From positions 6,882,001 to 6,946,000 of the forward strand of contig CM022677.1 of assembly GCA_012295275.1 (NCBI GenBank): a DNA stretch of 64,000 nucleotides. The letters run 5' to 3'. Shown piece by piece: positions 1-61,564 of this stretch; the stretch's first letter is position 1; each line of letters begins with the position of its first letter. Position numbers and translations under genes: made by a program. The notes below the pieces were generated by a model. The model did not search any database, was not told the DNA's origin, and saw only the letters and a program-made list of their open reading frames with translations. This DNA is from Chrysomallon squamiferum. Taxonomy: Eukaryota; Animalia; Mollusca.

Positions 1-1473
1 AGTTATTACTAAGATATATGATAGATTTATTTTGATAGTGTCTCACTTTTATTGACATGAATTTCTGTTGTGGACTCAGTCTTTTAAAGACTGATCATAG
101 GTTCTTTAATGTTTAAGTCATTCTTCTAATTATTGGCTTTTTGATGTTTAAATATTTATTTTTCATTCTTTCAATATTTTGCTAAAATATTTAAAATAAT
201 TTTTGATAATTTAAAATTTTATTTTTTCAATTTCTTGTTCTTATTATTTTAAAAGTTTAACAACACTTTCTTGTTATTATTTTATTCTTACTTATACTGT
301 AAACAGAAAGTACTACTGTTATATCATAATATTAGAATTATGCAAGTGCCTGTTCTCATTATTATTATAATTATTATTATTAGTAGTAGTAATAGTAGTA
401 GTAGCAGTAGTAGTAGTAGTATTAAAATACTAATAATGTAGTATTATTATAATTTGTAAAATCACTTTGTGGAAAGACTTTGTAGATGACAGACAAAGTT
501 TGTTTTCACAGCAAGTCACTAAATACATTTTTTATTATTTGTTCAAGTTCTGAAATGCAATAACTGTTGGTTTTCATTAACAAATGTTAAGATTAACATA
601 AATACTGTTTTAAATTTAGTGCCACAAAAGGAAGATCAGTTTGATTTACTGTTTACAAATAAAATGTGTTAAATTACATCAAAGTGTAAGATAACTTGTA
701 ACACGAGACATAAACACAGTACTTTCCTAACAAAGCTTTAACAAAAAACTTTCTATTTTGTCTCATGTTGTATAATCAGATTGCAAATGGATGATATGTT
801 GTTTGTTTCCTGCTGAAAGCATTGATGCAACCATCAGTTCAGGTTTTGTTAACTTGCTAGTATTTATTCATTTTCTCTCTGCCAAAATCTTGGTTTTGCT
901 CTCTGTCTGGTGATAGCCATTATGTTATAGAATGACAGCTAGTCTCTGTTTTTCTGTATTAAATGACTTATCTTTTTGTTTGCACAATGGATCTGATGAA
1001 ATCTCTTCTATTAATTTCACTTTAAAATGCATTGTCATCTTTTAGATCACTCTGTCCATTATGACTGCAATAAACAACATAAAATGTGCTCACATGTATT
1101 TATGCAGATTCTACTTTTCACACTAAATGTAAATGAGTGACTTTACTTAAGTATCACAACACAATGAAAATAGTCTCATTCATCTAGCTGCAGATATTAT
1201 TACAAGACATGGGATCATTGTTTATTAATCCTTCAAAGAAGTGTGATCATTTCTTCTCACACTGTGGTCTAATTACATGCAAACTGCTGCCATTGTTTAA
1301 CAAGTGAAACTACTTCTAAAATTGAGTTCCTGCAGAGACATAGCTGATATGTATACGTTCTTTTGCTGTGGAATTTTCACTCGAAATCAGAAGTAGACAG
1401 CACATAGATCAATAATGTTTTGATATAATAGATTAATGTTAGCATGTCAGGACTTTCAAATGACTAGTCAGGT

Positions 1474-1596
1474 ATATATATACATATGTATGTATGTGTG
1501 TCTGTGTGTGTGTGTGTATATGTGTGTGTGTATGTATGTTTGTATGTTTGTATGTATGTATGTATGTATGTATGTGTGTGTGTGTGTTTGTGTGTT

Positions 1597-1627
<31 letters not shown>

Positions 1628-2012
1628 ATGTATGTATCTATCTATGTATGTATGTATGTATGTATGTATGTATGTATGTATGTATGTATCTATGTATGTA
1701 TGTATGTATGTATGTATGTATGTATGTATGTATGTATGTATGTATGTATGTATGTATGTATGTATGTATCTATGTATGTATGTATGTATGTATGTATGTA
1801 TGTATGTATGTGTGTATGTATGTATGTATGTATGTATGTATGTATGTATGTATGTATGTATCGATGTATGTATGTATGTATGTATGTATGTATGTATCTA
1901 TGTATGTATCTATGTATGTATGTATGTATGTATGTATCGATGTATGTATGTATGTATGTATGTATGTATGTATGTATGTAGGTATGTACGTATGTATGTA
2001 TGTATGTATGCA
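1474..2012. repeat. (TATG)n/(TG)n microsatellite
   Basis: Directly visible tetranucleotide array; it explains the MYVC/YIHT pseudo-ORFs. Confidence 0.97.
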
Positions 2013-2424
2013 TGTTTTCCTAATAACATAACATCACAGCTGCAAAGTGGTAGTATATTGTTTTCTGGGAATTGCCACACTGTGGATTTGTTGGTAGAGC
2101 AATCAGTAAACAAAGTAAACAAAAAAACAAAAAAAAACAAAAAATCTGAAATTTATCATTTTACAGGAAGATATTATTAAAATTTAATTTCTTGAACAGA
2201 TAAAGTAGATGGTTATTAATAATAAAAATTATTTATGTGCTGGCATGTCTGTGTAGAATGTCATCAAATCCTGCGTAGTTTAAAAAAAGAAAGAAAACAA
2301 TTGTCAAAATTAAACAAAACAGTATCTTGGTGATTTTTCCCACTTTGTTTGCAGTCTTATTAGTAACTGTATATACTAACAGTTAGTTATTTACTACCAA
2401 ATTTCTGTCATCATGTTGATATAG

Positions 2425-3069
2425 TGTCACGGAATTCAGATTGCTTAACTTTAATTGTTACTTCAAATCACATCCGCTCTTTTATTTTAAGCTATTGAAC
2501 TGAAATTGCTTAACTTTAATTATTACTACAATCACATCGCTCTTTTTATTCTTTCTGCAAATTGTTCAACTCCATGGCGTTGTTATTAAAAAAGGCTGGC
2601 TTTTAGTAATCAAGGAGAGAAGTAAGTGAAGGAAACGGTGAAGACGAGAATTCAGTCAGGCGGGGAAACCAAATGTTTTCGAATGACATTTTCTTTACGG
2701 ACGAGTATGGTGAGCAATTGTCTATTCTTATTTTGATAGGGTGTAATGTGCAATTAATCTGTGTTAGTAACATTTATTGTTTTAATCTGTCCTCCGTTCC
2801 GATTCTTACTTTGTCTTGGTTCCCTTTATAACCTTACTCGTATCATTAATCAAAATGATTTAAACTTATGTTTTATAATGTATTATTATCAAGTCACCTG
2901 TAATGTAAACCTTAACTTGTATAGTGGATAGGTAGAGTTACTGATTTATATAGTTTGCTGTCATTTTAGCGTTTATATTCCTTGTTAGGTGGCCATTAAA
3001 GCACCTTGTTACCGTACACTGAGCCTTAATAAAACATCCAAGGTGTTTAAAGGTGTGAGCCCCGTGACA
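2425..3069 (+). mobile_element. Probable solo LTR (~645 bp)
   Basis: Begins TGTCACGG and ends CCGTGACA, a perfect 8-bp terminal inverted repeat with TG...CA ends. AATAAA lies ~40 bp before the 3' end. No matching target-site duplication is visible. Confidence 0.5.
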
Positions 3070-4134
3070 GTCGTCTCTTTATAACACTCCACAGTGAACC
3101 ATCATAACACATTTCTGAACAGCAGTATTTAAACATACTCTAATTAATACGCATTGTAAAATTACCCGATTTATACCATCAGCCAGTTTCATTCATCTGC
3201 AGTCATAAAGCAAACCAGTTTTCATTTTGTGTCGTATTTCATCAGTAAAGATTGTATGTTCTATGCAGCTATAATTTAAAAAAAGTAAAATAAAAACACT
3301 TTCACTGCTATTCAGCTTGGTACGGTGTGATAACCTGATTAGTGCCTCTTTGGCAGACTTGTTTTTAATTGTAATTTTGTTTTCTTTGAAGTGAATTATA
3401 GAATATTCACTAAATCTTTATTTTTATATGCCCATTAAAGCAGAATGTCTGCTACAGTTTATCTTAAATATCTTATTATATTACGATAATATTTATTTAG
3501 TTATCTTGTATAATCATGTTTATAATTTATATTTTTACAGTCGTTAACTCTTTACGTAATTAATGACAGAAAATAGGGTTAAATACACAAAAACTAAATA
3601 GCAGAGCGTATGCAGATGTACACGGGCTATTAAGAAGCTGCTTTATATAATTAGGGGAAGTTCCGTTATTTAATAAACTAAGAAACACTGGGGTTTAAGT
3701 AACTGAAAATTGGTATTAAAAGCTTCAAAGTAAATTCAGAAAGGCTATCTGCAGAGCTGTAGCTATTGGTGTATAAGTAGCAGCACGCGTTTTGAACGAG
3801 ATCGAATATCTCACAACAGACTCTCCACCGTGATGGTCGACATGGTGCAAGCCCGGAAGAGAAGCTGTGAAGAATACTAACGGACGGATTGTGCTTACTG
3901 AGCGGAATTCAGAAACGAAAAAGATACTGTACCATTTTCTTTATTTATTTAGACTTAAATTCTTATTTATATTATTTGTAGGCTTTTGTATTATTGTTAC
4001 TTTTATTACTTTTTTTTATTTTATTTTATTTTATTTTTTTACTGTTTGTTCGACTTTTGTCTTTTACTTTCCAGTATCTTAAATAACCGATATATCTTAT
4101 CTTGATCTCGTCATAACACAAACAAAGACATTCA

Positions 4135-4560
4135 AAATTCGACAGTCAACTCAACTTCCGATGCCATATACACAACATAATTGCATCCTGCAAAAAAACA
4201 ATCAATCTTCTAAAGTTAATTTCCGGAACCAGTTGGGGAGCAAACGAGTCAACGCCGATTTTGATACACAAAGTGTGTATTCTCTCCAAGCTCGACTACG
4301 GAGCCACGGCTTACTCGAATGCTCCCAAACTCTATTTAAAAAAACTAGACACAATTCAATCAAGTGCCCTCAGGGTGATCGGCCACCTGCCAAACACAAC
4401 ACCATCCGACAGCCTCCTGTCGGAATACAGCATCCAATAGAGAGTAGGATTCGCATTCATAGCCCAAGATCACACAAACAAACCCACATGCACACAATTC
4501 GGCCGTATCAGAAATCACCTTTCGGTGTATACGGCCGAATTGGTAGCCATCATCAGAGCC
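4135..4560 (+). mobile_element. Non-LTR retrotransposon (LINE, I/Nimb-like group) RT C-terminal fragment
   Basis: The frame starting at 4135 (not the listed ORF frame) reads KFDSQLNFRCHIHNIIASCKKTINLLKLISGTSWGANESTPILIHKVCILSKLDYGATAYSNAPKLYLKKLDTIQSSALRVIG. This matches the FD.KL.F..HI / GTSWGA / SKLDYG / KLDTIQ..ALR signature of the LINE RT thumb. It frameshifts afterwards. Confidence 0.85.
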
Positions 4561-4669
4561 ATGCTGTGGGTAAAACACAGCAACAACAAACACACAGTCA
4601 TATTCTCGCACAGTCCGCGATCTGATCTCAATACAATCCGGATACAATAAGATAATAACAACAACAACA

Positions 4670-4861
4670 ACAAAATCGAAATGAAAATACATTCACCATC
4701 GCGCTGTAGTGATCTCGCAATTCAATTTTACGTTGGAAGATATCTTTTTCAAACCGCACGCACGTACGCACACACACACACACACAAACAGACACACACA
4801 CTCACACACACAGACACACAGGCAGACACACACACACACACACACAGAGACACACAGGCAG

Positions 4862-4892
<31 letters not shown>

Positions 4893-5023
4893 GGCACGAG
4901 CTGAAATAACATACGTACACACACAATCAGACATACTCAACACGGCCACTCCAAAAAATAAAAAAATAAAAAATAAAAAAAGACAAAAAGACAAAAAGAA
5001 AATAAAGAAATAAATATTAAGAA

Positions 5024-5068
<45 letters not shown>

Positions 5069-5792
5069 GACGAGAGAAAACGAAAAAACACATCGGGTTT
5101 TATCCGTCCACTGTCACAGCCTTCATTTCCTTACACGGCTTATCTCCCTCTAATAATTCTCGTTTGGTGTAGTCGTCGAAATTACCAGAGAAAAATAATC
5201 TAAATTCGATGCAAAGTTGCCGCCACGTTTGTGTGCTTGATTCCAAAAATCATTCTATATGGATTTAGTTTGAACTTGGTGCTGCCAAAAAATTGTTGTG
5301 GTTTTTTGTTTGTTTGTTTGCTGTTTTTTCAACAGGGTTCAATACGTTTAATAAATGAGTTAGTTTTGCTGCAGTCAACAAAAAAAAACGCATGCAAGAC
5401 CGAGTCCACGGCACAAACGCACACTAGGCACACTGTCGTCTGTGGAGTGGGCTCGATCTTCTATTCGTAAAGATGTTTTCGGACTAACTGCAACAACAAC
5501 AACAACAACAACGTGTCTGATCATTATATAAATTAAATCGTAATCGTCGTTATTTTCAATTAAGACAGAATTTAATCATTTTTAATGTTCGAAGAGAACC
5601 TGGTCAATTGTAAATGGGTAGGTTATTCGTCAATAGATGAGGCAACTGCCGAATTGTCCGGCACTGATTGAAAATTTGAAAGAAAAAAAAAAGAAAAGAA
5701 CAAAAAAACAAGAACAAAAAAGACGAACCGACGTCTGTTTATCTTCGTTCTTCTTAATGCGTGCGCTGAATAACGACAACGATAACGATGGC

Positions 5793-5857
<65 letters not shown>

Positions 5858-6110
5858 TGATGATGATGATGATGATAATAAAATCGAAATGAAAATACAT
5901 TAATTATCGCGCAGTCGTGATCTCGCAATTCAATTTTACGTTGGAAGATACCTTTTTCGAACCGGCACGCGCACATACGCACACGCATACACACGCACAC
6001 ACACAGGCGCGTTCTGAAATAACAAACATACGTACACACACAATCAGACATACACAACACAGTCACTCCAAAACCTGCGCCCACGCACACACTCGCTACC
6101 GATGTCAATT
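4670..6110. repeat. Duplicated spacer-like modules (about 4670-4950 and 5880-6075) separated by microsatellites
   Basis: The block AAAATCGAAATGAAAATACATT...GTGATCTCGCAATTCAATTTTACGTTGGAAGATA...CACAATCAGACATAC occurs twice. Confidence 0.85.
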
Positions 6111-6178: not shown

Positions 6179-6292
6179 AACGAAGAAAGTAAGAAAGAAT
6201 GTAAGAAAGAAAGTAAGAAAGTAAGAAAGAAAGTAAGAAAAGAAAAGAAAAGAAAACAAAACAAAAGAAAACAAAAGAAAAGAAAGAGGCGC

Positions 6293-6393
6293 GTCTACGG
6301 CGGTCACCCATCCAAGTACTGTCCGAGCCCTGCGTTGCTTAACTTCGGTGATCGGAGGAGAACCGGTGTTTTCAACGTGGTGTGGCCGTAGAC
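6293..6393 (-). pseudogene. 5S rRNA: 5S rRNA copy with an internal deletion near the 3' end
   Basis: The reverse complement reads GTCTACGGCCACACCACGTTGAAAACACCGGTTCTCCTCCGATCACCGAAGTTAAGCAACGCAGGGCTCGGACAGTACTTGGATGGGTGACCGCC-GTAGAC. This is the invertebrate 5S consensus with boxes A and C, but 101 nt long and lacking the TGGGAATACCGGGTG segment. A T-rich tract follows. Confidence 0.92.
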
Positions 6394-52356: not shown

Positions 52357-53298
52357 CTGGATTGATATTGATTGTTACTGGAAGTATTATTATATATATA
52401 AGTATTGTTCTTATTATTGTTATTATTATTCCTGTTGTTATTATTTATTATTATTGTTATTGTTATTAATATTTATTATTGTTATTATTATTGTTATTAT
52501 TGTTATTATTATTATTACTTATTATTATTATTATTTTATTATTATCCAAATTTATTATCTGTTGTTGTTGATGGTATTGTTGTTTATGTTTTGTTGTTAT
52601 GTTGTTATTGTTGTTGTGGTAATCCACGGAGACTGTGTGCTGACTAGTAATTTTTTGTTGTTGTTTTGGAAAACTGCTGAACCAGTCTTGTCACCCTGAA
52701 TGAAGGGATGCAACGGAACTAAGAACCCTGACTGTCTACTGAGTTGAACTTTAACCTCAAACTGAACAATAGCTTATTGAACTGTATATGTAACTCTGTA
52801 TGTTGTTTGGGTTTTGTGTGTGTGTGCATTTGATGTCCAAATTTAAAAACAAGTAGTGAAAATATTAAAATTATTAATTATAAAAATACAACAACATAAT
52901 CTGACTCAAAAAGCCATGTTTTTGTTGTTGTTTTAATGTTTAAACAGTCTTGTCGTTTCATCCAAAACCCAGACAAGAATCCAGGAGAGCAGTACACATT
53001 GACCTTCACCTTGATCCAAAACAAACAAACTTATTCCAAATACCAAGTTCACAAATCACCTTTCTGTGTGTGAGGAGATGTCCAGGTAAAAACCAAAACT
53101 CAGCAGAAAAATAGTAAAAATGTATTAATTATAAAAAACAACAACAACATAATCTGTTCAAAAAGCCATTTTCAGCATCATCAAACAACCACTATAAACT
53201 GACCATTACATCCAAAAGTCCTCAGCATATTGTTCATTTGATTATTATCAGTTGTTGATTAGGATGTTCACAGCCCAAGGGTATAACAAACAAACCCA

Positions 53299-53646
53299 TT
53301 GAATACAATTTTGATACATCAAATCACCTTTCAGCATGCACGGCCGAATTCCAGCAGACCAGACCTACTCAGCAGAATACAACATCTACACGAAATTGTC
53401 GGAGCTGACAGTGTATATCTACCTGAAGCGACTGCTATCGGACAAAGTATAGTTGAATCTTCTGTAGAAGGCATTGCTAGCTATACTAAAACTCAAATAA
53501 AGGACGCTTTGGATCAATTCACTGATTTTGTGAATTCAAAAGATACAGCAGTAGATAATAACGTTTCATCTGAAGAACGAGAGGAATTGGAAACTGAAGA
53601 GGACGAATACATATCATATATGCGTACTACAAGTCCAATTTCATGA
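53299..53646 (+). CDS. Small acidic ORF upstream of capsid copy 1 (possible VP N-terminal/accessory ORF)
   Basis: 115 codons; the listed start is TTG and the true start is uncertain. The C-terminal half SSVEGIASYTKTQIKDAL...EEDEYISYM is conserved in copy 2. Its stop overlaps the capsid ATG (ATGA at 53643). Confidence 0.6.
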   Translation: MNTILIHQITFQHARPNSSRPDLLSRIQHLHEIVGADSVYLPEATAIGQSIVESSVEGIASYTKTQIKDALDQFTDFVNSKDTAVDNNVSSEEREELETEEDEYISYMRTTSPIS

Positions 53647-55510
53647 ATAAAGGGAAACGTATATTAAACAAGAAGGACATTACCAGACTTTGGGCTATAG
53701 CTAAAGCTAAAGCATTTGATATATTATCAGAGATAAATGTGCCGGTGGATCAGCGCCAAAACAGGTGGTTACAAATTCGACGTCAATATCCAAATTTACA
53801 GATTCCAAATCAAGATTTCTATTCGGCAATACAAAATATTCGGAACGAATATAACCATATTGAAGATCAAGACGAAGAGGACCCTTTTAATACGCCTATA
53901 TACCCAGAAGACGAACAAGCATTAAAAGCATCAGAACAACAAGGCATGACACGACAAAACATCGAACCTGGAGGAGGATCTAGCTCCAAAGTTCCTAATA
54001 ATAATCAACTATCTACGAGGATATCACAAGATGTATTGGATCAATCTAATTCCAAAGGAACGTATCTTCAACCTCAAGAGTTCGTATTGGAACCTGATTC
54101 TATCATGAACGAAGAAGTAACTGATACAGGTGGAAGTGAAGCCGTAGAAGGTGCTCCTATGGCCTCTGCTACAGGAAATAACGTTTTATACCAAGGATTT
54201 GGAGATACAACGTCTGAAGCTAATCCGAGGTATATTACCATTAAAAAAACATTTAAACGAACATTCACTAGTGTGATTAATTTCTCTAAACAAAGAAAAG
54301 CTAGTATGTCAGTTATAGATAATGCAACAAATGCTTCAGCATGGAAAAATGCAATAGGTGATCCAAATGTATGTGAATTTACATTCAATCATGGTGGTCA
54401 CATTATACCTTATTGGTATAAAGCAGCTAGCACGAAGGCAGACGATTGGAATTTACCTGATGAGGTATAATAATATGATAATACATGTTTTAAATAATAC
54501 TAAAGCAGATCCAAACGAAGTACCAGTAATGGCACCTCCAAATGCACAAGTTTGGACATTTACAGATATTTATAATGAGTATGGATTACCTGATAAACAT
54601 TTGGACCTATCTCATAATAATCTGTTCAAAGATGAAGAATGTATGGACAACACATCTCAAAGAAGCATACCGGTTCAACCAGATCGTAAATTATATTTGC
54701 CTAGTGACATAGGTATGCAACTGTTAAACAGTGCTTGGAACAGTGAGGGTGCGACTTATACTGCCGAAACACCTAATTACATATACGATATGAAAAAACA
54801 CGATGGATATAGAGAAACAGTTATTAGTGCAGGTGGTTTCAGTTTGGATTATACATGTAAAGATTCACCTTTAGTTATATTTCCAGGAGAAACAAGTCAT
54901 ACATTAAACTTTACTCAGATTACTGGTAAGGTTAAGAACGATAGATATCAGTCTAGCAACGAAAACAAAGCTAACTTAGAGGTATGGCCTACACACGAAG
55001 TAACAGTAACTGACACTTCTAAACATCCATTAGGGACTGCTATCATTACCTATTTTAACCATCAATACAGAAATGTACACTATTCAGCTTGTTATCAAAA
55101 TAAAGTTGGTAAAGATTTAGGAGCACGATCGATGGCAGATGATGCTAGCACCAAACTAGGTAAAAGCGGTATATCTAGCAATGATTTAGATAATCCAAAT
55201 GTGAACACGTGCATGGACGGTAAACACCGTATCAATGCAATAGACCTCCTATGTTCCTAATAGGTTTATACCCTGATGTAGAGAAAACTAGTAATGGAGC
55301 TACATTATTCTTTAATTACCATGCTAACATACAAATAACTTATTATAGCGAGGTTGAGTTTTTAGTCAGAACGGCAATGTGTCCAAAATACATACCTATA
55401 GGTTTGGGTGGATGTCCGTCAGGTAATATGTCAGGACTTTTTTTTAAATTGAACGATACTACACCTGTAGGAAATAAAGACAATGTTAAGCTTACAGAAC
55501 AACCTAACTT
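53643..55510 (+). pseudogene. Parvovirus-like capsid (VP) gene, copy 1; frameshifted and 3'-truncated
   Basis: ORFs 53643-54470, 54358-55260 and 55251-55529 are collinear with copy 2. Motifs RYITIKKTFKRTF, GHIIPYWY, STKADDWNL, PPMFLIG and ITYYSEVEF echo parvoviral jelly-roll elements. The FVGYKIKRFGFNI segment is deleted at ~54466, there is a frameshift near 55235, and the hairpin block cuts it off. Confidence 0.75.
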
Positions 55511-55843
55511 TTTTTTTTTTTTACAATAACAAGAGTTTAGTTGTCAACCTAACTCTTGTGATTTGTAAAAAAAGCAAAGATCCTCATTACTGGCTTTTGG
55601 CTTTTTGACCAAATGTACTTTAACTTATGCTCCTTTGGGCGAAGCCTAAGCACCTTCGGGTTAAAAGTACTTTTGGTTATAAAGCCAAAAGCCAGTAATG
55701 AAGATCTTTGGGTTTTTTTTACAAATCACAAGTTAGGTTATCGTCTTCGCCCGAAGGAACGCGATCACCTTCGGGTTAAAAGTACATTTGGTTAAAAAGC
55801 CAAAAAGCCAAAAGCCAATATGAGTTAAACTTTTTTTTTTTTT
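55508..55843. repeat. Palindromic hairpin block 1 (one full ~195-nt hairpin plus partial arms)
   Basis: AACCTAACTCTTGTGATTTGT...TGGCTTTTGGCTTTTTGACCAAATGTACTTTAAC / GTTAAAAGTACTTTTGGT..AAAGCCAAAAGCCA...ACAAATCACAAGTTAGGTT spans about 55546-55739. It is near-identical to the block at 60892-61119. Confidence 0.92.
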
Positions 55844-56013
55844 CATCTGTGGAAGCTATTGCGCACTATACTAAAGATCAAATTAAAGAAGCAATCGAAG
55901 AATTTCCTGCTGTTATTGCAAAAAAGGACATATCCGAGTCATCTGTTGACAATAAGGATAAAGAAGAAGAAGAAGAGAACATAAATTATATGAACACATA
56001 TAAACCTGTTTAA
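55843..56013 (+). pseudogene. 5'-truncated homologue of the small acidic ORF (copy 2)
   Basis: Reads SSVEAIAHYTKDQIKEAIEEFPAVIAKKDISESSVDNKDKEEEEENINYMNTYKPV*. Its stop overlaps the next ATG (TAATG, 56011-56015). Confidence 0.7.
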
Positions 56014-58128
56014 TGAGCAACAAAGGAAAACGGTTACTAAACAAGGAAGAAGTAACACGTTTGTGGGCTATAGCAAAGTCTAAAGCTCTTAGCATATTAC
56101 AAAGTCTAAAGCTCTTAGCATATTACAAAGTCTAAATGTGCCTAGGGATAAAGCTGAAGAAAAGTGGTTACAAATTCGATGTCGATATCCAAATCTACAA
56201 ATACCTACTAAAGATTTCTATTCAGCAATACATAATATTCGGAACGAATATAACGATACTTAGGATTCGGACGAAGAAGACCCTTTTAATTTGCCTCTAT
56301 ACTCGGAAGAAGAACAAGAACCAAACAAAATAATGGACGCAGACAAAAGAAAATGTACAAAAGAAGACTTTTGTCCATCTAAAAAGCAACGAAAAGATAA
56401 TCCAGTTATCTACAACTGTATCAGATGATGTCGTTGGAAATAGTAACGCTAAAGGAACTTATTTACAACCAAATGAATCTGTTACGGATGCAGATTCTGT
56501 TTCTGGTAACGAAGTAACAGATACTGGTGGTACTGAAGCTGTTCAAGGAGCACCAATGGCATCTGCAACTGGAAACAATGTACTTTATCAAGGGTTTGGA
56601 GGAACTACTAGAGGTACAGATCCTAGATACATCAAAGTAACAAAGACATTTAAGAGAACATTTACTAGTGCTATTAATTTTGATATGCATACCAAAGCTA
56701 AGATGACAGTTCTTAATTCAACTAATCTTGGGTGGACAAATGCTATAGGTGATCCATCCGCTTGTGAGTTAGTTTTTAATCATGGTGGTCATATTATACC
56801 TTATTGGTATAAACAAGCCAGTACACGACCAGAAGACTGGAATTTACCAGATGAGTTTGTAGGATATAAGATCAAGAGATTCGGATTTAATATAAATAAC
56901 ATGACAATCCATGTTTTAAATAATAATAAAGCTGATTCCAATGAAGTTCCTATCATGGCTCCTCCTAATGCCCGAGTATGGACATTTACAGATTTACATA
57001 ATGATTAAGGAATACCTCATACAGCTGATAACAGCAAAAGTCATAATGATTTATTCAGAGATGAAGAGTGTATGGATCAAACATCGAATAGAGTGATACC
57101 TAAACAGCCTGACAGATACATGTATCTAACAGGTGATGTCGGTATGCAATTGCTAAATAATGGTTGGACCAAAGTAACTGATAATACTTTTAAAGCTATT
57201 GAACCTAATTACATCTATAACATTAAGAAACTTGATGGTTATAGAGAAACAGTTATAAGTGCAGGTGGCTTTGCTCTTGATTATACTTGTAAAGATTCTC
57301 CGTTGGTATTATTTCCTGGAGAGACTAGTCATATGTTGGCATTTACTCATGTCACAGGAAAGGTTAAAAAAGGCAATTATCAGTGATGAAAGTTCAAAAA
57401 CATTGGAAGTATGGCCCACTCACGAGTTAACTGTAACTGATGTTGCACTTCATCCTTATGCAAAAGTAATGACTACATACTTTAATCATCAATATAGAAA
57501 TGTAGACTATAAAGCGTGTTTTCAAAATGCTGCAGGTGAACAATTGGGTGCACCTGCTATGGCAAGTGATCCTTCGAATAAACTTGCTAAAAAAGGAGTA
57601 ACCGCAAATGACATTAGTGCTCATAATTATAATACAGAAACGGATGGTTCTCACAGAAGAACTTTTCAATGTAACAGACCACCTATGTTTCTCATTGGTA
57701 TATATCCAGACGTAGAAAAGACTACTAGTGGCAACACCTTATTTTTTAATTATCATGCTAATCTACATATTACATATTACAGTGAAGTAGAGTTCATAGT
57801 AAGAACAGGATTCTGTCCTAAGTATATTGCTATAGGACTAGGTGGTTGTCCAGGTCCCATGAGAGGTCTGTATATATATGGTAAGGATGTAGCCAGAAAT
57901 AAAGATGTCGTTAAACATACTGAACAAGGTCAATTCTTAAGTGAAAATGCACAACAATATGTCGAACGAATACGTAAAACATGGGAAATGAGAATTGCTG
58001 CTCCTATATGGGACAATTCGAATCAAAGAAAGTCGAGGCGACGAGTTGTCTGGCCATTACATGGAACATACGGAGACAGAACGGTTCCAATTAAAGAAAA
58101 CGAAACCGATTATTCTTATCCTATTTAA
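56013..58128 (+). pseudogene. Parvovirus-like capsid (VP) gene, copy 2; full span but disrupted
   Basis: Starts MSNKGKRLLNKEEVTRLWAIAK (copy 1: MNKGKRILNKKDITRLWAIAK). STRPEDWNLPDEFVGYKIKRFGFNINNMTI resembles the parvoviral alphaA-betaD signature (SP.DWQ...F+PK.L.F.+.NI). Lesions include a 26-bp tandem duplication at 56075-56126, a stop at 57006 and a frameshift near 57380. Confidence 0.8.
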
Positions 58129-58239
58129 ATAATTATTCATTGTTCATATTAGTTAATTAATTACTTATCGTTAATTACTATTTTAAAAGAACTATTTGTT
58201 ATTACGCTGTGTAAGAACACAGTGAAAAGTCTGTTGTGT

Positions 58240-58395
58240 TATAGATCACGTAACATCTCGTTACGTCATATCAATGACGCCATGTAAATATTGGTATAAA
58301 TAAAACTGACATTCAAAAATATTTTTGTCGTTTGTCATTAATTGACTTGCTACACGTTAAAAGAAGCATAGTTATAATCCAGCACCACTATGGAG
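58240..58395 (+). promoter_or_regulatory. Putative NS promoter
   Basis: ATF/CRE-like TCACGTAA, TTACGTCA (58261) and TGACGCCA; TATAAA at 58295; Kozak-like ACTATGG at 58390. Confidence 0.6.
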
Positions 58396-60482
58396 AAATA
58401 TATTGAAGACGCTACTAATACTTCTGAATATTACTCAATTATATTGGGACATAAAGAGTACGACTTGGTGCATCCCAACTATCTGGTTCCAAGATGCCTT
58501 GCGAAAGATAAGAACGGAAAATATGTTTACGCCATAGGAAAGAATTATATCAAGAGTTTCGTCATGGACGACCAAGACATTCTAGACAAGTGCGTGGACC
58601 ATTGGTCGACTCCGCAATCGGAGTTCATGATGAGAGGTCAGGATAGAGTGATAACTGAACTTAAAAACATGTTAAGGAATAAAAACTGGAAGATGCTGTT
58701 AGTGTACCATGATAAATAGTGTGATATGGACTCCAACATACCTACAAATGGAAGTCATGTCCATATCATATGGAAAACAACGATGACACATCCAAGTCAA
58801 GATCATCAATATAGACGTTTACACCGAGCTGTTCTGGCTGAAAAAGGGTATATAAAGTTAAGGAAGTTACGTCAGCCATACAAATACTCTGTATCTGAAT
58901 TCATGAACTACTTAATAAGAGATGATGAGAAAATGTTTTTAGGAAAAAATTGTCCGGACATGCTCAATAAATGGAATCTATTACTGGATCAAGAAAAAAA
59001 CTGGCTAAAAGATGATTATAATGAAAATACTGTATTCAAAGACACGTCTATCAACGAAGATATAAAGACATTTGAAGTTAAGCCTCCCAAGAAAAAAATG
59101 ACGGTTCAGGAATTTTTAAATGAACACAATGACGTGTTACAACATGGACAAGGAATGACAGTAAAGGAGATAAATCAAGAAACAAAGAACATTATAGACA
59201 TTGATGATGATATTCCAACTAACAAGCCTGAAAAGATTCCAAGTCACCTCATGTCTACCAAATCAGCAGACACATTTGACTTTTTTTACAAATTGGTTCA
59301 AAAGTATCCAGATGTGAATAAACTCAATATGCTCATAAGCAAATTCGATACATCGAGCAATGAATTTAAAGCTCTTTGTAATGCTGTTGCCAACATATCT
59401 GGAGAAAAAATATTTAAAGCAGCAAGAACCAAATACCTAATGGAACAAGCAGACAAAAGTGCCTACGATCAGATAAAAGCTCTCGACGATAACCTAGAAA
59501 ATTATATGACATCAGAAGATTCTTTGAAACTATTTAACAGTTGGTGCCAGGAACACGAGATACCAGAGCGATGGTTCTATGTACTAATGAATATCCTTTT
59601 GAAAGGCAAAGGCAAAAAGAAAATTGGAATCTATTTACAAGGCGAGAGCGATTCCGGCAAGACAATGTTGTCGTCGAGTTTGTTTGAACCTTTGACATGT
59701 TCCGGTAAAATAGCGAAAGACAATTTTCCATGGCAGATGCTGGGTGACAAAAAATTGTTATTGGAGAAGAAATCGCTATTACCCAAGTAAACATAGACAA
59801 ATACAAAGATCTTCTCAGTGGCAGTAAGGCAACATGCGAGCCGAAGGGAACGACACCGGTGTATTGCAAAGCAAGCTTATGTATTTTAAACAGCAACATT
59901 CCTTTTGGACAGAACATTACATCAACTCAAATGAGTATTATGAAAACTAGATTGTACTTCATCGAGCACTTGAAGAAAAGCAATACACTAAAACGAGCTA
60001 AATTATTCACCTTGTGCGAAGATCCATCCGAAGACGAAATAATGGTTGCGATTGAAAACAATAAACAATTCTTTAACGATAAACTCAATCCACTACAAAA
60101 CGACAAGACAGTTCAAGCTAAGTATAGTTACTTCCATGACTCTTTTGACAACGAATCACAAGAATCACGTGGAGTAAAGAGGCAATACGATAACATCGAA
60201 GCCTATATAGAAAATGAAGAGAAAGATCTCAATCAGAATGAAGACATCATCAATGAATCTCCAAAGAAGAAACGAAAAATTCTGAAAGCAAAACGATCAG
60301 ACTGTGATACGATAAGTGGTAACACGTCAGATGAACATTCTCAAGATCTGTTTATAGCATCTGAAGATGACAACAACCCTGCTGATAATACAATTCCAGA
60401 AGCGTATATGAATAATAACCAAGCTTTGGACATTGATATCGAAGACATTATTCCGCCATCGCAAATTAATTATAGTGTTTGA
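58390..60482 (+). pseudogene. NS1: NS1/Rep-like protein (HUH endonuclease + SF3 helicase), with one in-frame stop and one frameshift
   Basis: HUH motif GSHVHIIW (58756-58764), catalytic-Tyr-like FMNYL and Walker A GIYLQGESDSGKT (GESDSGKT at 59641-59664). After correcting the A-run at 59749-59754, Walker B IVIGEE, B' YKDLLSG...CEPKG and motif C CILNSN follow. The tail is acidic and carries an NLS-like PKKKRK. The TAG at 58717 is in frame with the downstream ORF. Confidence 0.92.
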
Positions 60483-60697
60483 CATTTAAATGAATATTAT
60501 ATCATAAACAAATGATATCATTGATGCTGTTTAAAATGTTAATCATAGTTACATTGTTACGTTAGTAAAAGTTAAATAATTAAATTTACTTAGTTTGTCA
60601 TATGTTTATATTAATTTTATATATAAATACAATGAAAAATAACATTATTAATAAATTAAAAAAATGAAGTCGCTGAAAATTATGACCTGATATATTT

Positions 60698-61119
60698 CAA
60701 CTCTACTCTTGTTATTGTAAAAAAAAAAACAAAGTTTAACTCATATTGGCTTTTGGCTTTTTGGCTTTTTAACCAAATGTACTTTTAACTTATGATCCTG
60801 CGGGTTTTGGCTTCGCCCGAAGGAACATTATCACCTTCGGGTCAAAAGTACATTTGGTTAAAAAGCCAAAAGCCAAAAGCCAATCATGGGGAACTTTTTT
60901 TTTTTTTTACAATAACAAGAGTTTAGTTGTCAACCTAACTCTTGTGATTTGCAAAGATCCTCATTACTGGCTGTTGGCTTTTTGACCAAATGTACTTTAA
61001 CTTATGCTCCTTCGGGTGAAGCCTAAGCACCTTCGGGTTAAAAGTACTTTTGGTCAAAAAGCCAAAAGCCAGTAATGAAGATCTTTGTTTGTTTTACAAA
61101 TCACAAGAGTTAGGTTGAC
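60698..61119. repeat. Palindromic hairpin block 2: two tandem hairpins (60698-60929 and 60929-61119)
   Basis: Each has ~80-90-nt inverted arms CAAC..ACTCTTGT.ATT...(TGGCTTT)2-3..ACCAAATGTACTTT(T)AAC and a GC-rich loop containing CCTTCGGG and/or CCCGAAGG. Confidence 0.93.
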
Positions 61120-61258
61120 TATATATCACGTCTTGTCTTTCACTCCCCCCACCCTATATACTTTTTTTTATATTTTGAGATGACGTTATGTCAGTTATGT
61201 CACGTGACTATGCAGCTTCGGGTGTTAAAGTACATTTGGTAAAAAAGCCAAAAGCCAG
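61120..61258. other. Promoter-like spacer plus a further partial hairpin arm
   Basis: Palindrome GTCACGTGAC (~61199-61208), ATGACGT and TATA-like motifs, then CTTCGGGTGTTAAAGTACATTTGGTAAAAAAGCCAAAAGCCAG. Confidence 0.55.
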
Positions 61259-61564
61259 TCTGTTCAACTCTGTTATTTAAATAGGTCAGCTGATTCCATT
61301 TTATGTTTTAACGATGTTTTATAGGGTACATTTTTACCAGAACTCTTGGTATTTATTTATTTTAAGTTTTGATTAGATTATTAAGTACAGTATTCTTTCA
61401 AAACAAAATTATTTAAAAATATAAAATTAAATTTAAAAAAAAAAGTATCTCCCTTAAACCAAACATTTTTTAATACGAAGTCTGTACTTTTATTTTAAGT
61501 CAGTAATAAAGGATTTCTGACACTAAATCATTTTAAAAAAGTAACTTCTTTTACCACAGACTTG

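Follow-up and report, generated by a model that had tools for sequence, protein, structure and literature searches.

The window analysed here (64,000 nt of the Chrysomallon squamiferum genome) contains on its plus strand, in this order, a small ORF, a putative capsid gene (VP), a spacer and an NS1 gene with HUH nuclease and SF3 helicase motifs, which together with the adjoining hairpin blocks form a parvovirus-like element of about 5.75 kb. We regard this element, with a probability of roughly 0.84, as a parvovirus-like genome, integrated into the chromosome and since decayed, from an unclassified lineage, in which the small ORF and a likely capsid gene precede NS1 and in which this order is likely native. 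All parts listed in a preliminary description of the same DNA were found again on the plus strand and in the same order; the span given there, about 5.6 kb, was slightly too short, and a second copy of the small ORF and VP at ~53,390-55,502 (69% identity over 1,787 columns) had been missed. We refer to this upstream copy as copy A and to the one preceding NS1 as copy B. The features of the locus are:

53259..53390, unstranded: likely host-repeat insertion within the upstream viral copy (joint 53258-53391 in contigs)
53392..53646, plus strand: copy A of small ORF X, open over 84 codons, its stop overlapping the VP start
53643..55502, plus strand: putative capsid gene, copy A, with breaks near 54,465 and 55,230 and the 3' end missing
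55506..55843, unstranded: hairpin block H1; partial alpha arm, full T/Y-shaped beta hairpin, half alpha hairpin
55843..56013, plus strand: small ORF X, copy B; 5' part removed by H1, stop overlapping the VP start
56013..58128, plus strand: putative capsid gene, copy B, by identity to an intact relative (P0019) and to a gene of metagenome contig L001
58129..58389, plus strand: VP-NS1 spacer, 261 bp, with promoter-like motifs; predicted NS1 promoter
58390..60482, plus strand: NS1/Rep with HUH nuclease motifs and SF3 helicase, by homology to an intact relative (P0009)
60483..60683, plus strand: AT-rich 3' UTR with AATAAA-type motifs at 60,579 and 60,650
60684..61132, unstranded: hairpin block H2; tandem alpha and beta T/Y-shaped hairpins, AAAAGCC repeats
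61120..61259, unstranded: 88-nt promoter-like fragment and a further half hairpin, recognized by motifs; likely a remnant of another genome end

The parvoviral nature of the element is most evident from NS1. The gene encodes ~700 amino acids, is interrupted by an in-frame stop at 58,717 and a frame break near 59,750, and is 52-53% identical to its intact relative P0009. The profile search suggested in the preliminary description gave a Parvo_NS1 match above the cut-off in intact relatives (E 4e-8 for P0009); the pieces of the window NS1 by themselves match no Pfam family because the helicase is split. The NS1 family profile matches AAV Rep (E 1.4e-12), and in structure comparisons NS1 scored highest with AAV Rep40 (Z 19.4), followed by B19 (Z 17.7) and PCV2 Rep (Z 11.9). 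H137-x-H139 and Y188 are invariant in 28 aligned rows and are also present in the window NS1, and the NS1 model aligns with Rep68 over ~600 columns, with the nuclease domain lying within the full model. An SF3-helicase NS1 homologous to that of parvoviruses is the basis for classification in the Parvoviridae (PMC13426907); such an NS1 is present here, as the Parvo_NS1, AAV Rep and Rep40 matches show, and the N-terminal HUH endonuclease typical of the family is recognizable by its motifs.

The NS1 family is closest to parvovirus NS1/AAV Rep and far from named genera. It consists of about 50 unnamed proteins (51 matches at E<=0.001), and all 50 BFVD matches listed are parvovirus-type NS/Rep or unnamed. 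The best of these, A0A7D3UI69 ('Parvoviridae sp.', 1,093 aa), stands well apart from the next (E 2e-50 versus 5e-26). Named matches among the 50 listed show 10-18% identity in structural alignments and the best unnamed one 26%, which, as far as such alignments with the listed matches tell, lies below the NS1 identity of 35-40% or more to a member that named genera need according to the accessible text of PMC9001828.

The gene upstream of NS1 is represented by two broken copies. Copy A of VP is 48-66% and copy B 48-60% identical to the intact relative P0019; copy B has frame breaks near 56,100, 56,420 and 57,385 and in-frame stops near 56,261 and 57,006, and it matches the L001 gene with 31-36% identity (E 2e-35). 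Differences between copies A and B are biased towards third codon positions; for ORF X, which is 46% identical between the copies, they are distributed 21/16/32 over the three positions. From its size, its co-occurrence with NS1 in four settings and strand motifs that we take to resemble the beta-strand motifs of parvoviruses, we infer that the upstream gene encodes the capsid protein. The capsid profile and structure searches proposed earlier did not add to this: VP had no Pfam, PDB or Atlas match, its predicted fold (pLDDT 28.6) gave no usable structure, and an Atlas search with the VP-like part of the Plakobranchus protein P0033 returned scores all <=0.81. HDxxY, the motif of PLA2, was absent from P0019, from copy A of ORF X and from three ORFs of L001 in a simple scan, and Pfam likewise gave no PLA2 match. 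ORF X was also considered as a leftover NS1 tail and rejected, the similarity being not significant (~50 of 1,000 shuffles were as good; hhalign probability 0.6%); in direct comparison it matched neither ORF1 nor ORF4 of L001.

The 261-bp spacer was described previously as carrying promoter motifs and no palindrome, and this was borne out: no large palindrome was found between 58,129 and 58,389 (z -1.9; 6 of 200 shuffles as good), and motifs that we presume to be E-box-like (58,247), CRE-like (58,263 and 58,275) and TATA-like (58,295) were located. A 1,575-nt contig assembled from public run X7 bridges the VP end, the spacer and NS1 (window 57,989-59,576, 34 differences); a misassembly at the junction, named in the preliminary description as a possible refutation, is thus unlikely. 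A second variant from the same organism shows ~86% identity across NS1 (0-3 gaps per 620-960 nt), and in two of four runs 33 nt of VP 3' sequence precede its spacer. Contigs over VP and NS1 were also obtained from RNA run X3, which does not by itself show transcription.

Both hairpin blocks fold strongly (H1, 55,506-55,843: z -12.8; H2, 60,684-61,132: z -22.4; 0 of 100 shuffles as good in either case), and 17 of the 28 AAAAGCC/GGCTTTT matches in the window fall within them; these repeats are candidate NS1-binding sites. The hairpins have stems of 75-100 bp and two small arms, and occur as two types in inverted arrangement. The earlier view of a genome bracketed by hairpins therefore holds as regards strongly folding blocks on both sides, but not as regards clean genome ends, for H1 is scrambled. 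Its segment 55,506-55,739 repeats 60,892-61,116 in direct orientation at 92% identity, and 55,775-55,843 is a 99% inverted match to 60,721-60,789. Homology to the upstream copy begins exactly at 55,843, which shows that H1 cuts into the small ORF of copy B. Since it cuts this ORF and largely copies the right block, H1 is not an intact native left end; it is a scrambled junction between copies A and B, and the native left end is missing from the window. The same block cuts off the 3' end of VP in copy A, to which no NS1 is attached. In three of four runs the NS1 3' end was joined to a hairpin arm (joint 55839/60675). The minus strand of 61120..61259 weakly resembles the spacer promoter (9 of 500 shuffles as good).

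Integration into the host chromosome is indicated by flanks rich in microsatellites, by a 5S rRNA match, by a GC difference (35-36% versus 26-29%) and by the stops and frame changes that break every gene of the element. Neither a target-site duplication nor an empty site was found; the search with the empty-site flanks yielded 1 match with 1.18 expected.

Whether the order of VP and NS1 is native depends on relatives. The preliminary description had proposed a distinct HUH/SF3 lineage with native VP-NS order, to be abandoned if homologous loci consistently showed the NS-VP order. L001, a metagenome contig of 6,039 nt whose ORFs are unbroken and whose protein identity to the window is ~30%, carries ORF1 (204-938), a VP homologue (978-3170), NS1 (3227-4978) and ORF4 (5007-6038), all on the plus strand. 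Direct comparison with the window gives E 2e-35 for its VP and 4e-39 for its NS1, and the window-VP profile finds its VP homologue at E 9e-58. Since the reversed order recurs in this distant and intact relative, it is likely native and the mark of an unclassified virus lineage, not a local accident. The NS1 proteins of the window and L001 are far apart in both trees, which fits an old VP-NS1 order; these trees (44 and 27 rows; quick or FastTree only; P0078, which is repeat-like, and the weakest NS1-family rows left out) have long-branch outgroups and contain no named references. The NS-VP order was thus not the consistent pattern among relatives; it is found in one gene model of the sea slug Plakobranchus, P0033 (GFO18443.1), in which NS1 is followed by a VP homologue (E 1e-22) and which groups near the L001 NS1 in one tree.

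Of 389 pattern matches, L001 was the one free-standing relative read. The contig is incomplete on the right and no hairpin was captured, none being present between VP and NS1; its two ends share a 24-nt inverted repeat (without chance control), and no terminal direct repeat is among its repeats listed. ORF4 did not match the long NS1 tails. Named homologues of the NS1 family come from Plakobranchus and Elysia, and ten NS1 clusters that were looked up included six contigs 6.8-7.25 kb in length (behind P0036, P0038, P0041 and P0056). Multiple NS1 and VP copies per contig occur in the closest relative, on contigs of 8.4, 60.9, 297 and 452 kb; the 60.9-kb contig has four different NS1 N-termini, and some copies are intact. 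Scans of viral contigs found no relative, and neither the first metagenome scan (0 of 140) nor the prokaryote scan (0 of 75) gave a confirmed one.

Multiple copies per contig would also be expected if the lineage were no longer, or never had been, a conventional virus but a hairpin-ended HUH/SF3 mobile element that multiplies in animal genomes, VP-only copies being its non-autonomous derivatives and the upstream gene perhaps cargo. The lack of a capsid match for VP fits this explanation, as does the greater depth of copy-A bins compared with NS1 bins in three of four runs, although depth is not copy number. However, the stand-alone contigs of 6-7 kb and the best fold match, the 'Parvoviridae sp.' protein of 1,093 aa, point to free viruses, the third-position-biased divergence between copies fits repeated capture of different viruses, and the missing target-site duplication and empty site speak against such an element, which we consider unlikely.

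The circular alternative of the preliminary description, a unisense genome with one hairpin origin after NS1 whose apparent gene order depends on where the circle was opened, would agree with the absence of a hairpin between VP and NS1 in the window and L001, with H1 being largely a direct copy of H2, and with the NS-then-VP order of P0033, for which a tandem or circular form would equally account. Origin hairpins of CRESS viruses are far shorter than those seen here, and the long, two-armed stems of two types, with inverted repeats on both sides, an NS1 closer to AAV/B19 than to circovirus Rep, and the end repeats of L001, inverted and not direct, render a circular genome highly improbable. 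Still less credence can be given to a local rearrangement or misassembly of an NS-then-VP parvovirus, for example a head-to-tail concatemer without junction hairpins in which ORF X would be the NS1 tail. The locus is visibly scrambled, P0033 has the required order and ORF X has a slight likeness to the NS1 tail of relatives; but the order of L001 largely refutes this explanation, the junction is bridged in one run and seen again in the second variant, and the window NS1 still has a full-length tail of its own, with a UTR and poly(A)-type motifs.

A native capsid-first order departs from the reviewed arrangement of parvovirus genomes, in which NS occupies the left and VP the right part (PMC11357303, PMC9896142); this holds, in monosense or ambisense form, for Parvovirinae, Densovirinae, Hamavirinae and others. 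It is not wholly new: in the accessible part of Shan et al. 2022 (PMC9001828), two genomes from goose swabs, MT138329 and MT138334 (7,244 and 7,497 nt), have the structural ORF upstream of the non-structural one, and an additional ORF. They share this order with the window element and possibly belong to the same clade; we infer that A0A7D3UI69 derives from one of them, although the same table, as far as accessible, contains other genomes of >6.5 kb. That part of the paper leaves the host open and mentions neither hairpins nor endogenous copies nor a wider clade. Compared with both genomes the window element is shorter, and no transglutaminase-like ORF was seen in it. No other report of a capsid-upstream order was found in the literature searched, which included few subscription journals; 'parvo' does not occur in PMC13673630.

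With Parvovirinae NS1, AAV2 Rep68 and B19 NS1 the element shares the HUH and SF3 domains and T/Y-shaped hairpins, and these proteins are its best solved-structure matches, yet identity to AAV2 Rep68 and B19 NS1 in structural alignments is 12-19%, the gene order is reversed, the PLA2 motif pair was not found and the host genome seems invertebrate-like. The VP1 PLA2 of Densovirinae and Parvovirinae was thus not detected in the motif scan, and no ORF or Pfam match for the protein-primed PolB of Bidnaviridae was found in the element or in the right-incomplete L001. Palindromic hairpins as in Parvoviridae are evident from folding, the intact left end being gone, and genome size (5.75 kb here, at least 6.0 kb for L001) compares with ~4-6 kb for the family. 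Francois et al. 2016 (PMC5013282, accessible in part) reported marine mollusc sequences that fall outside the known genera and stand nearer to the parvoviruses of vertebrates; the present family, with its named homologues in Plakobranchus and Elysia, may be comparable. In the megaparvovirus lineage of SwaBA-MePV-1 the genome is large, additional ORFs lie upstream of NS1 and hosts were inferred from endogenous copies; a PLA2 ORF precedes NS1, yet the major VP follows it (PMC13426907).

By analogy with Parvoviridae biology, the ancestral virus would have had a linear ssDNA genome of ~6-7 kb, replicated by a rolling-hairpin mechanism in which NS1 would bind the AAAAGCC repeats and nick the terminal hairpins; the upstream gene would form a T=1 jelly-roll capsid lacking PLA2, and a promoter of its own, located in the spacer, probably drove NS1 expression. 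Truncated copy A, scrambled ends and copy B would have become fused at the hairpins, either on integration or through recombination afterwards, and the joined cluster would then have decayed; integration of JcDV scrambles ITR, NS and VP (PMC5978394). Such hairpin-joined clusters of divergent copies raise the question of NS1-directed germ-line integration. It is conceivable, though rather doubtful, that the ~50 divergent NS1 clusters in public data represent an unrecognised clade of subfamily rank of capsid-first aquatic-invertebrate parvoviruses whose NS1 repeatedly inserts genomes at resident viral hairpins, giving rise to multi-copy clusters here and in contigs of the related animal. A broad clade with capsid-first genes on the same strand would need a different timing of early and late genes and would likely deserve its own subfamily. 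Since NS1 is structurally closest to AAV Rep, the lineage also bears on the origin of vertebrate parvoviruses, and its endogenous copies supply the animal hosts and hairpin sequences that are absent for the two goose-swab genomes in the accessible part of their description. At the left edge of the locus, contigs from three of four public runs skip 53259..53390, and 53,267-53,350 within this segment matches window positions 4,456-4,541 at 74%.

The element in the window has a putative capsid gene (VP) followed by NS1 on the plus strand (positions below, together with a 5S rRNA match in the flanks):

6,292-6,393, minus strand: 5S rRNA match (64.7 bits)
56,013-58,128, plus strand: putative capsid gene (VP), copy B, from a translated search with intact relatives
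58,390-60,482, plus strand: NS1, from a translated search with intact relatives

Both hairpin blocks fold far better than shuffled controls (left block z -12.8, right block z -22.4), and the 261-nt spacer between VP and NS1 contains promoter-like motifs and shows no comparable folding (z -1.9; 6 of 200 shuffles were as good). These are the parts, in order and strand, that the preliminary description had listed from the sequence. Every viral gene of the element is broken. The GC content of the element is 35-36% versus 26-29% in its flanks, which are rich in microsatellites; together with the 5S rRNA match, which may be a lone copy or a repeat derived from 5S, these flanks indicate an animal-type chromosome. 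A further promoter-like fragment (61,120-61,207) sits between hairpins; read on the minus strand, it has a weak resemblance to the spacer promoter (9 of 500 shuffles were as good).

Misassembly of the VP-NS1 junction had been named as a possible artefact. For one organism, sampled in three studies of which one may be the source of the window, 9 of 11 listed sequencing runs carry part of the window, and four were compared with it. A 1,575-nt contig from one of these (run X7) corresponds to 57,989-59,576 and bridges the junction: it takes in the 3' end of VP and the spacer and reaches into NS1, with 34 differences. A second variant with about 86% identity over NS1 (0-3 gaps per 620-960 nt) occurs in three of the four runs, and in two it retains 33 nt of VP 3' sequence followed by a shortened spacer. 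A hairpin arm is joined to the NS1 3' end in three of the four runs, among which no single piece covers the whole stretch. The VP-NS1 arrangement is real and not a local accident.

Gene order in a relative was read from a metagenome contig (L001; ENA), the one confirmed among 389 pattern matches in a metagenome scan. It comprises 6,039 nt with four unbroken open reading frames on one strand:

204-938: ORF1
978-3170: VP homologue (window-VP profile, E 9e-58)
3227-4978: NS1
from 5007, running off the contig end at 6038: ORF4, at least 344 codons

Both its VP and its NS1 match the window directly, and VP again precedes NS1 on the same strand, with a short gap of 56 nt between them. Strong splice-donor matches occur at just two positions (944 and 3178), both immediately past a stop codon, that of ORF1 and that of VP, which suggests splicing. 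ORF4 matched neither Pfam nor any protein compared in this analysis. The contig ends carry a 24-nt inverted repeat, and the captured sequence includes no hairpin. Because the NS1 proteins of this contig and the window are far apart in both trees, the simplest reading of the two members is that VP-before-NS order is old and clade-wide. The proposal of a distinct lineage with native VP-NS order is backed by this order and this distance, and the reversed order is likely native to an unclassified parvovirus-like lineage. Evidence against it comes from a Plakobranchus gene model (P0033) in which NS1 is fused to a VP homologue downstream; this may represent a canonical NS-VP member or two adjacent copies merged by gene prediction.

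The NS1 pieces in the window have no Pfam match because the helicase is split; intact relatives with 52-53% identity to the window NS1 pass the Parvo_NS1 cut-off. A full HMMER search returned 51 NS1 representatives, 22 of them with E<=1e-30. Seven of ten clusters looked up are unnamed Logan proteins (six contigs, 6.8-7.25 kb), one is L001, and two are linked to Plakobranchus and Elysia, both sea slugs. In a 28-row NS1 profile the HUH and Tyr residues are invariant, and this profile matches AAV2 Rep (E 1.4e-12). The model of an intact relative (P0009; pLDDT 74) matches AAV Rep40 (Z 19.4), B19 NS1 (17.7), papillomavirus E1 (15.1) and PCV2 Rep (11.9). In BFVD, a 1,093-aa 'Parvoviridae sp.' protein (A0A7D3UI69) is by far the best match, and named genera reach 10-18% identity among the matches listed. 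Many NS1 proteins of the family are 930-1,120 aa long and bear an uncharacterised extension at the C-terminus.

No direct test of VP as a capsid gave a match; the putative assignment is based on the size of VP, its presence alongside NS1 in four settings (the window, the ENA contigs, P0033 and L001) and an apparent likeness of its conserved segments to parvovirus beta-strands. Of the Parvoviridae criteria, NS1 and hairpins were both found, and the element falls outside every named subfamily or genus tested. It would work like a parvovirus, its capsid gene being putative. By analogy with Parvoviridae, NS1 would replicate the genome by a rolling-hairpin mode on the terminal hairpins, with AAAAGCC repeats as candidate binding sites (the two hairpin blocks hold 17 of the window's 28 matches); NS1 would be driven by a separate promoter in the spacer, and the capsid would lack PLA2. 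Integration would then leave partial genomes clustered and linked to one another at hairpins. The closest relative, another organism, follows the same pattern: its ENA contigs (8.4-452 kb; putative contig assignments) each carry multiple copies of NS1 and VP. In some of these NS1 (724 aa) and VP (690 aa) are intact, and a contig of 60.9 kb has four different NS1 N-termini. Such clustering could reflect either NS1-directed insertion at resident hairpins or plain accumulation of copies.

The accessible text of two papers gives NS on the left as the norm for parvovirus genomes (PMC11357303, PMC9896142), and that of a third recognizes six subfamilies classified by SF3 and describes a lineage in which a PLA2 ORF comes ahead of NS1 (PMC13426907). 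Parvovirus sequences from molluscs are left unplaced in the portion available of PMC5013282. Two genomes of more than 7 kb from goose swabs, as far as the available text describes them, place the structural ORF ahead of the non-structural one, as in the window, and carry an extra ORF (PMC9001828). Our literature search found no further paper naming these two genomes, which may belong to the same clade as the window element, with a tentative link via A0A7D3UI69. Capsid-first order has already been noted once in print, without host or clade; for this lineage, the present analysis adds endogenous copies, the sequences of its hairpins and an NS1 family of about 50 clusters.

A second copy (A, ~53,390-55,502) of VP and a small ORF (ORF X), overlooked in the preliminary description, lies directly upstream of copy B, with 69% identity over 1,787 columns. 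Differences fall mainly at third codon positions (e.g. 32/26/79 over 151 codons), which indicates divergence under selection and makes it probable that the copies represent two distinct viruses. Copy A at its 3' end, and ORF X of copy B at its 5' end, are both truncated by the left hairpin block, which for the most part repeats a portion of the right block directly at 92% identity; judged by sequence, the left block is a scrambled junction of the alpha and beta hairpin units that also make up the right block. The genome is bracketed by two blocks, as first described, but the left one is not an intact left end. A comparable case is reported, in the text available, for integrated JcDV, whose end repeats are scrambled together with pieces of NS and VP (PMC5978394).

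Copy A (53,390-55,502) has no attached NS1 and could be a defective form that carries the putative capsid gene alone, or else a second virus with an NS1 too divergent to match. Its bins are deeper than the NS1 bins in three of the four runs, a depth that does not give copy number. ORF X is small and acidic in both copies (53,392-53,646; 55,843-56,013), and its stop overlaps the VP start; no homologue was found, and its likeness to the NS1 tails of relatives is non-significant. A fragment at 4,117-4,541, without a Pfam match, presumably resembles the C-terminal part of a LINE reverse-transcriptase ORF, and the sequence adjoining it matches an insertion in copy A.
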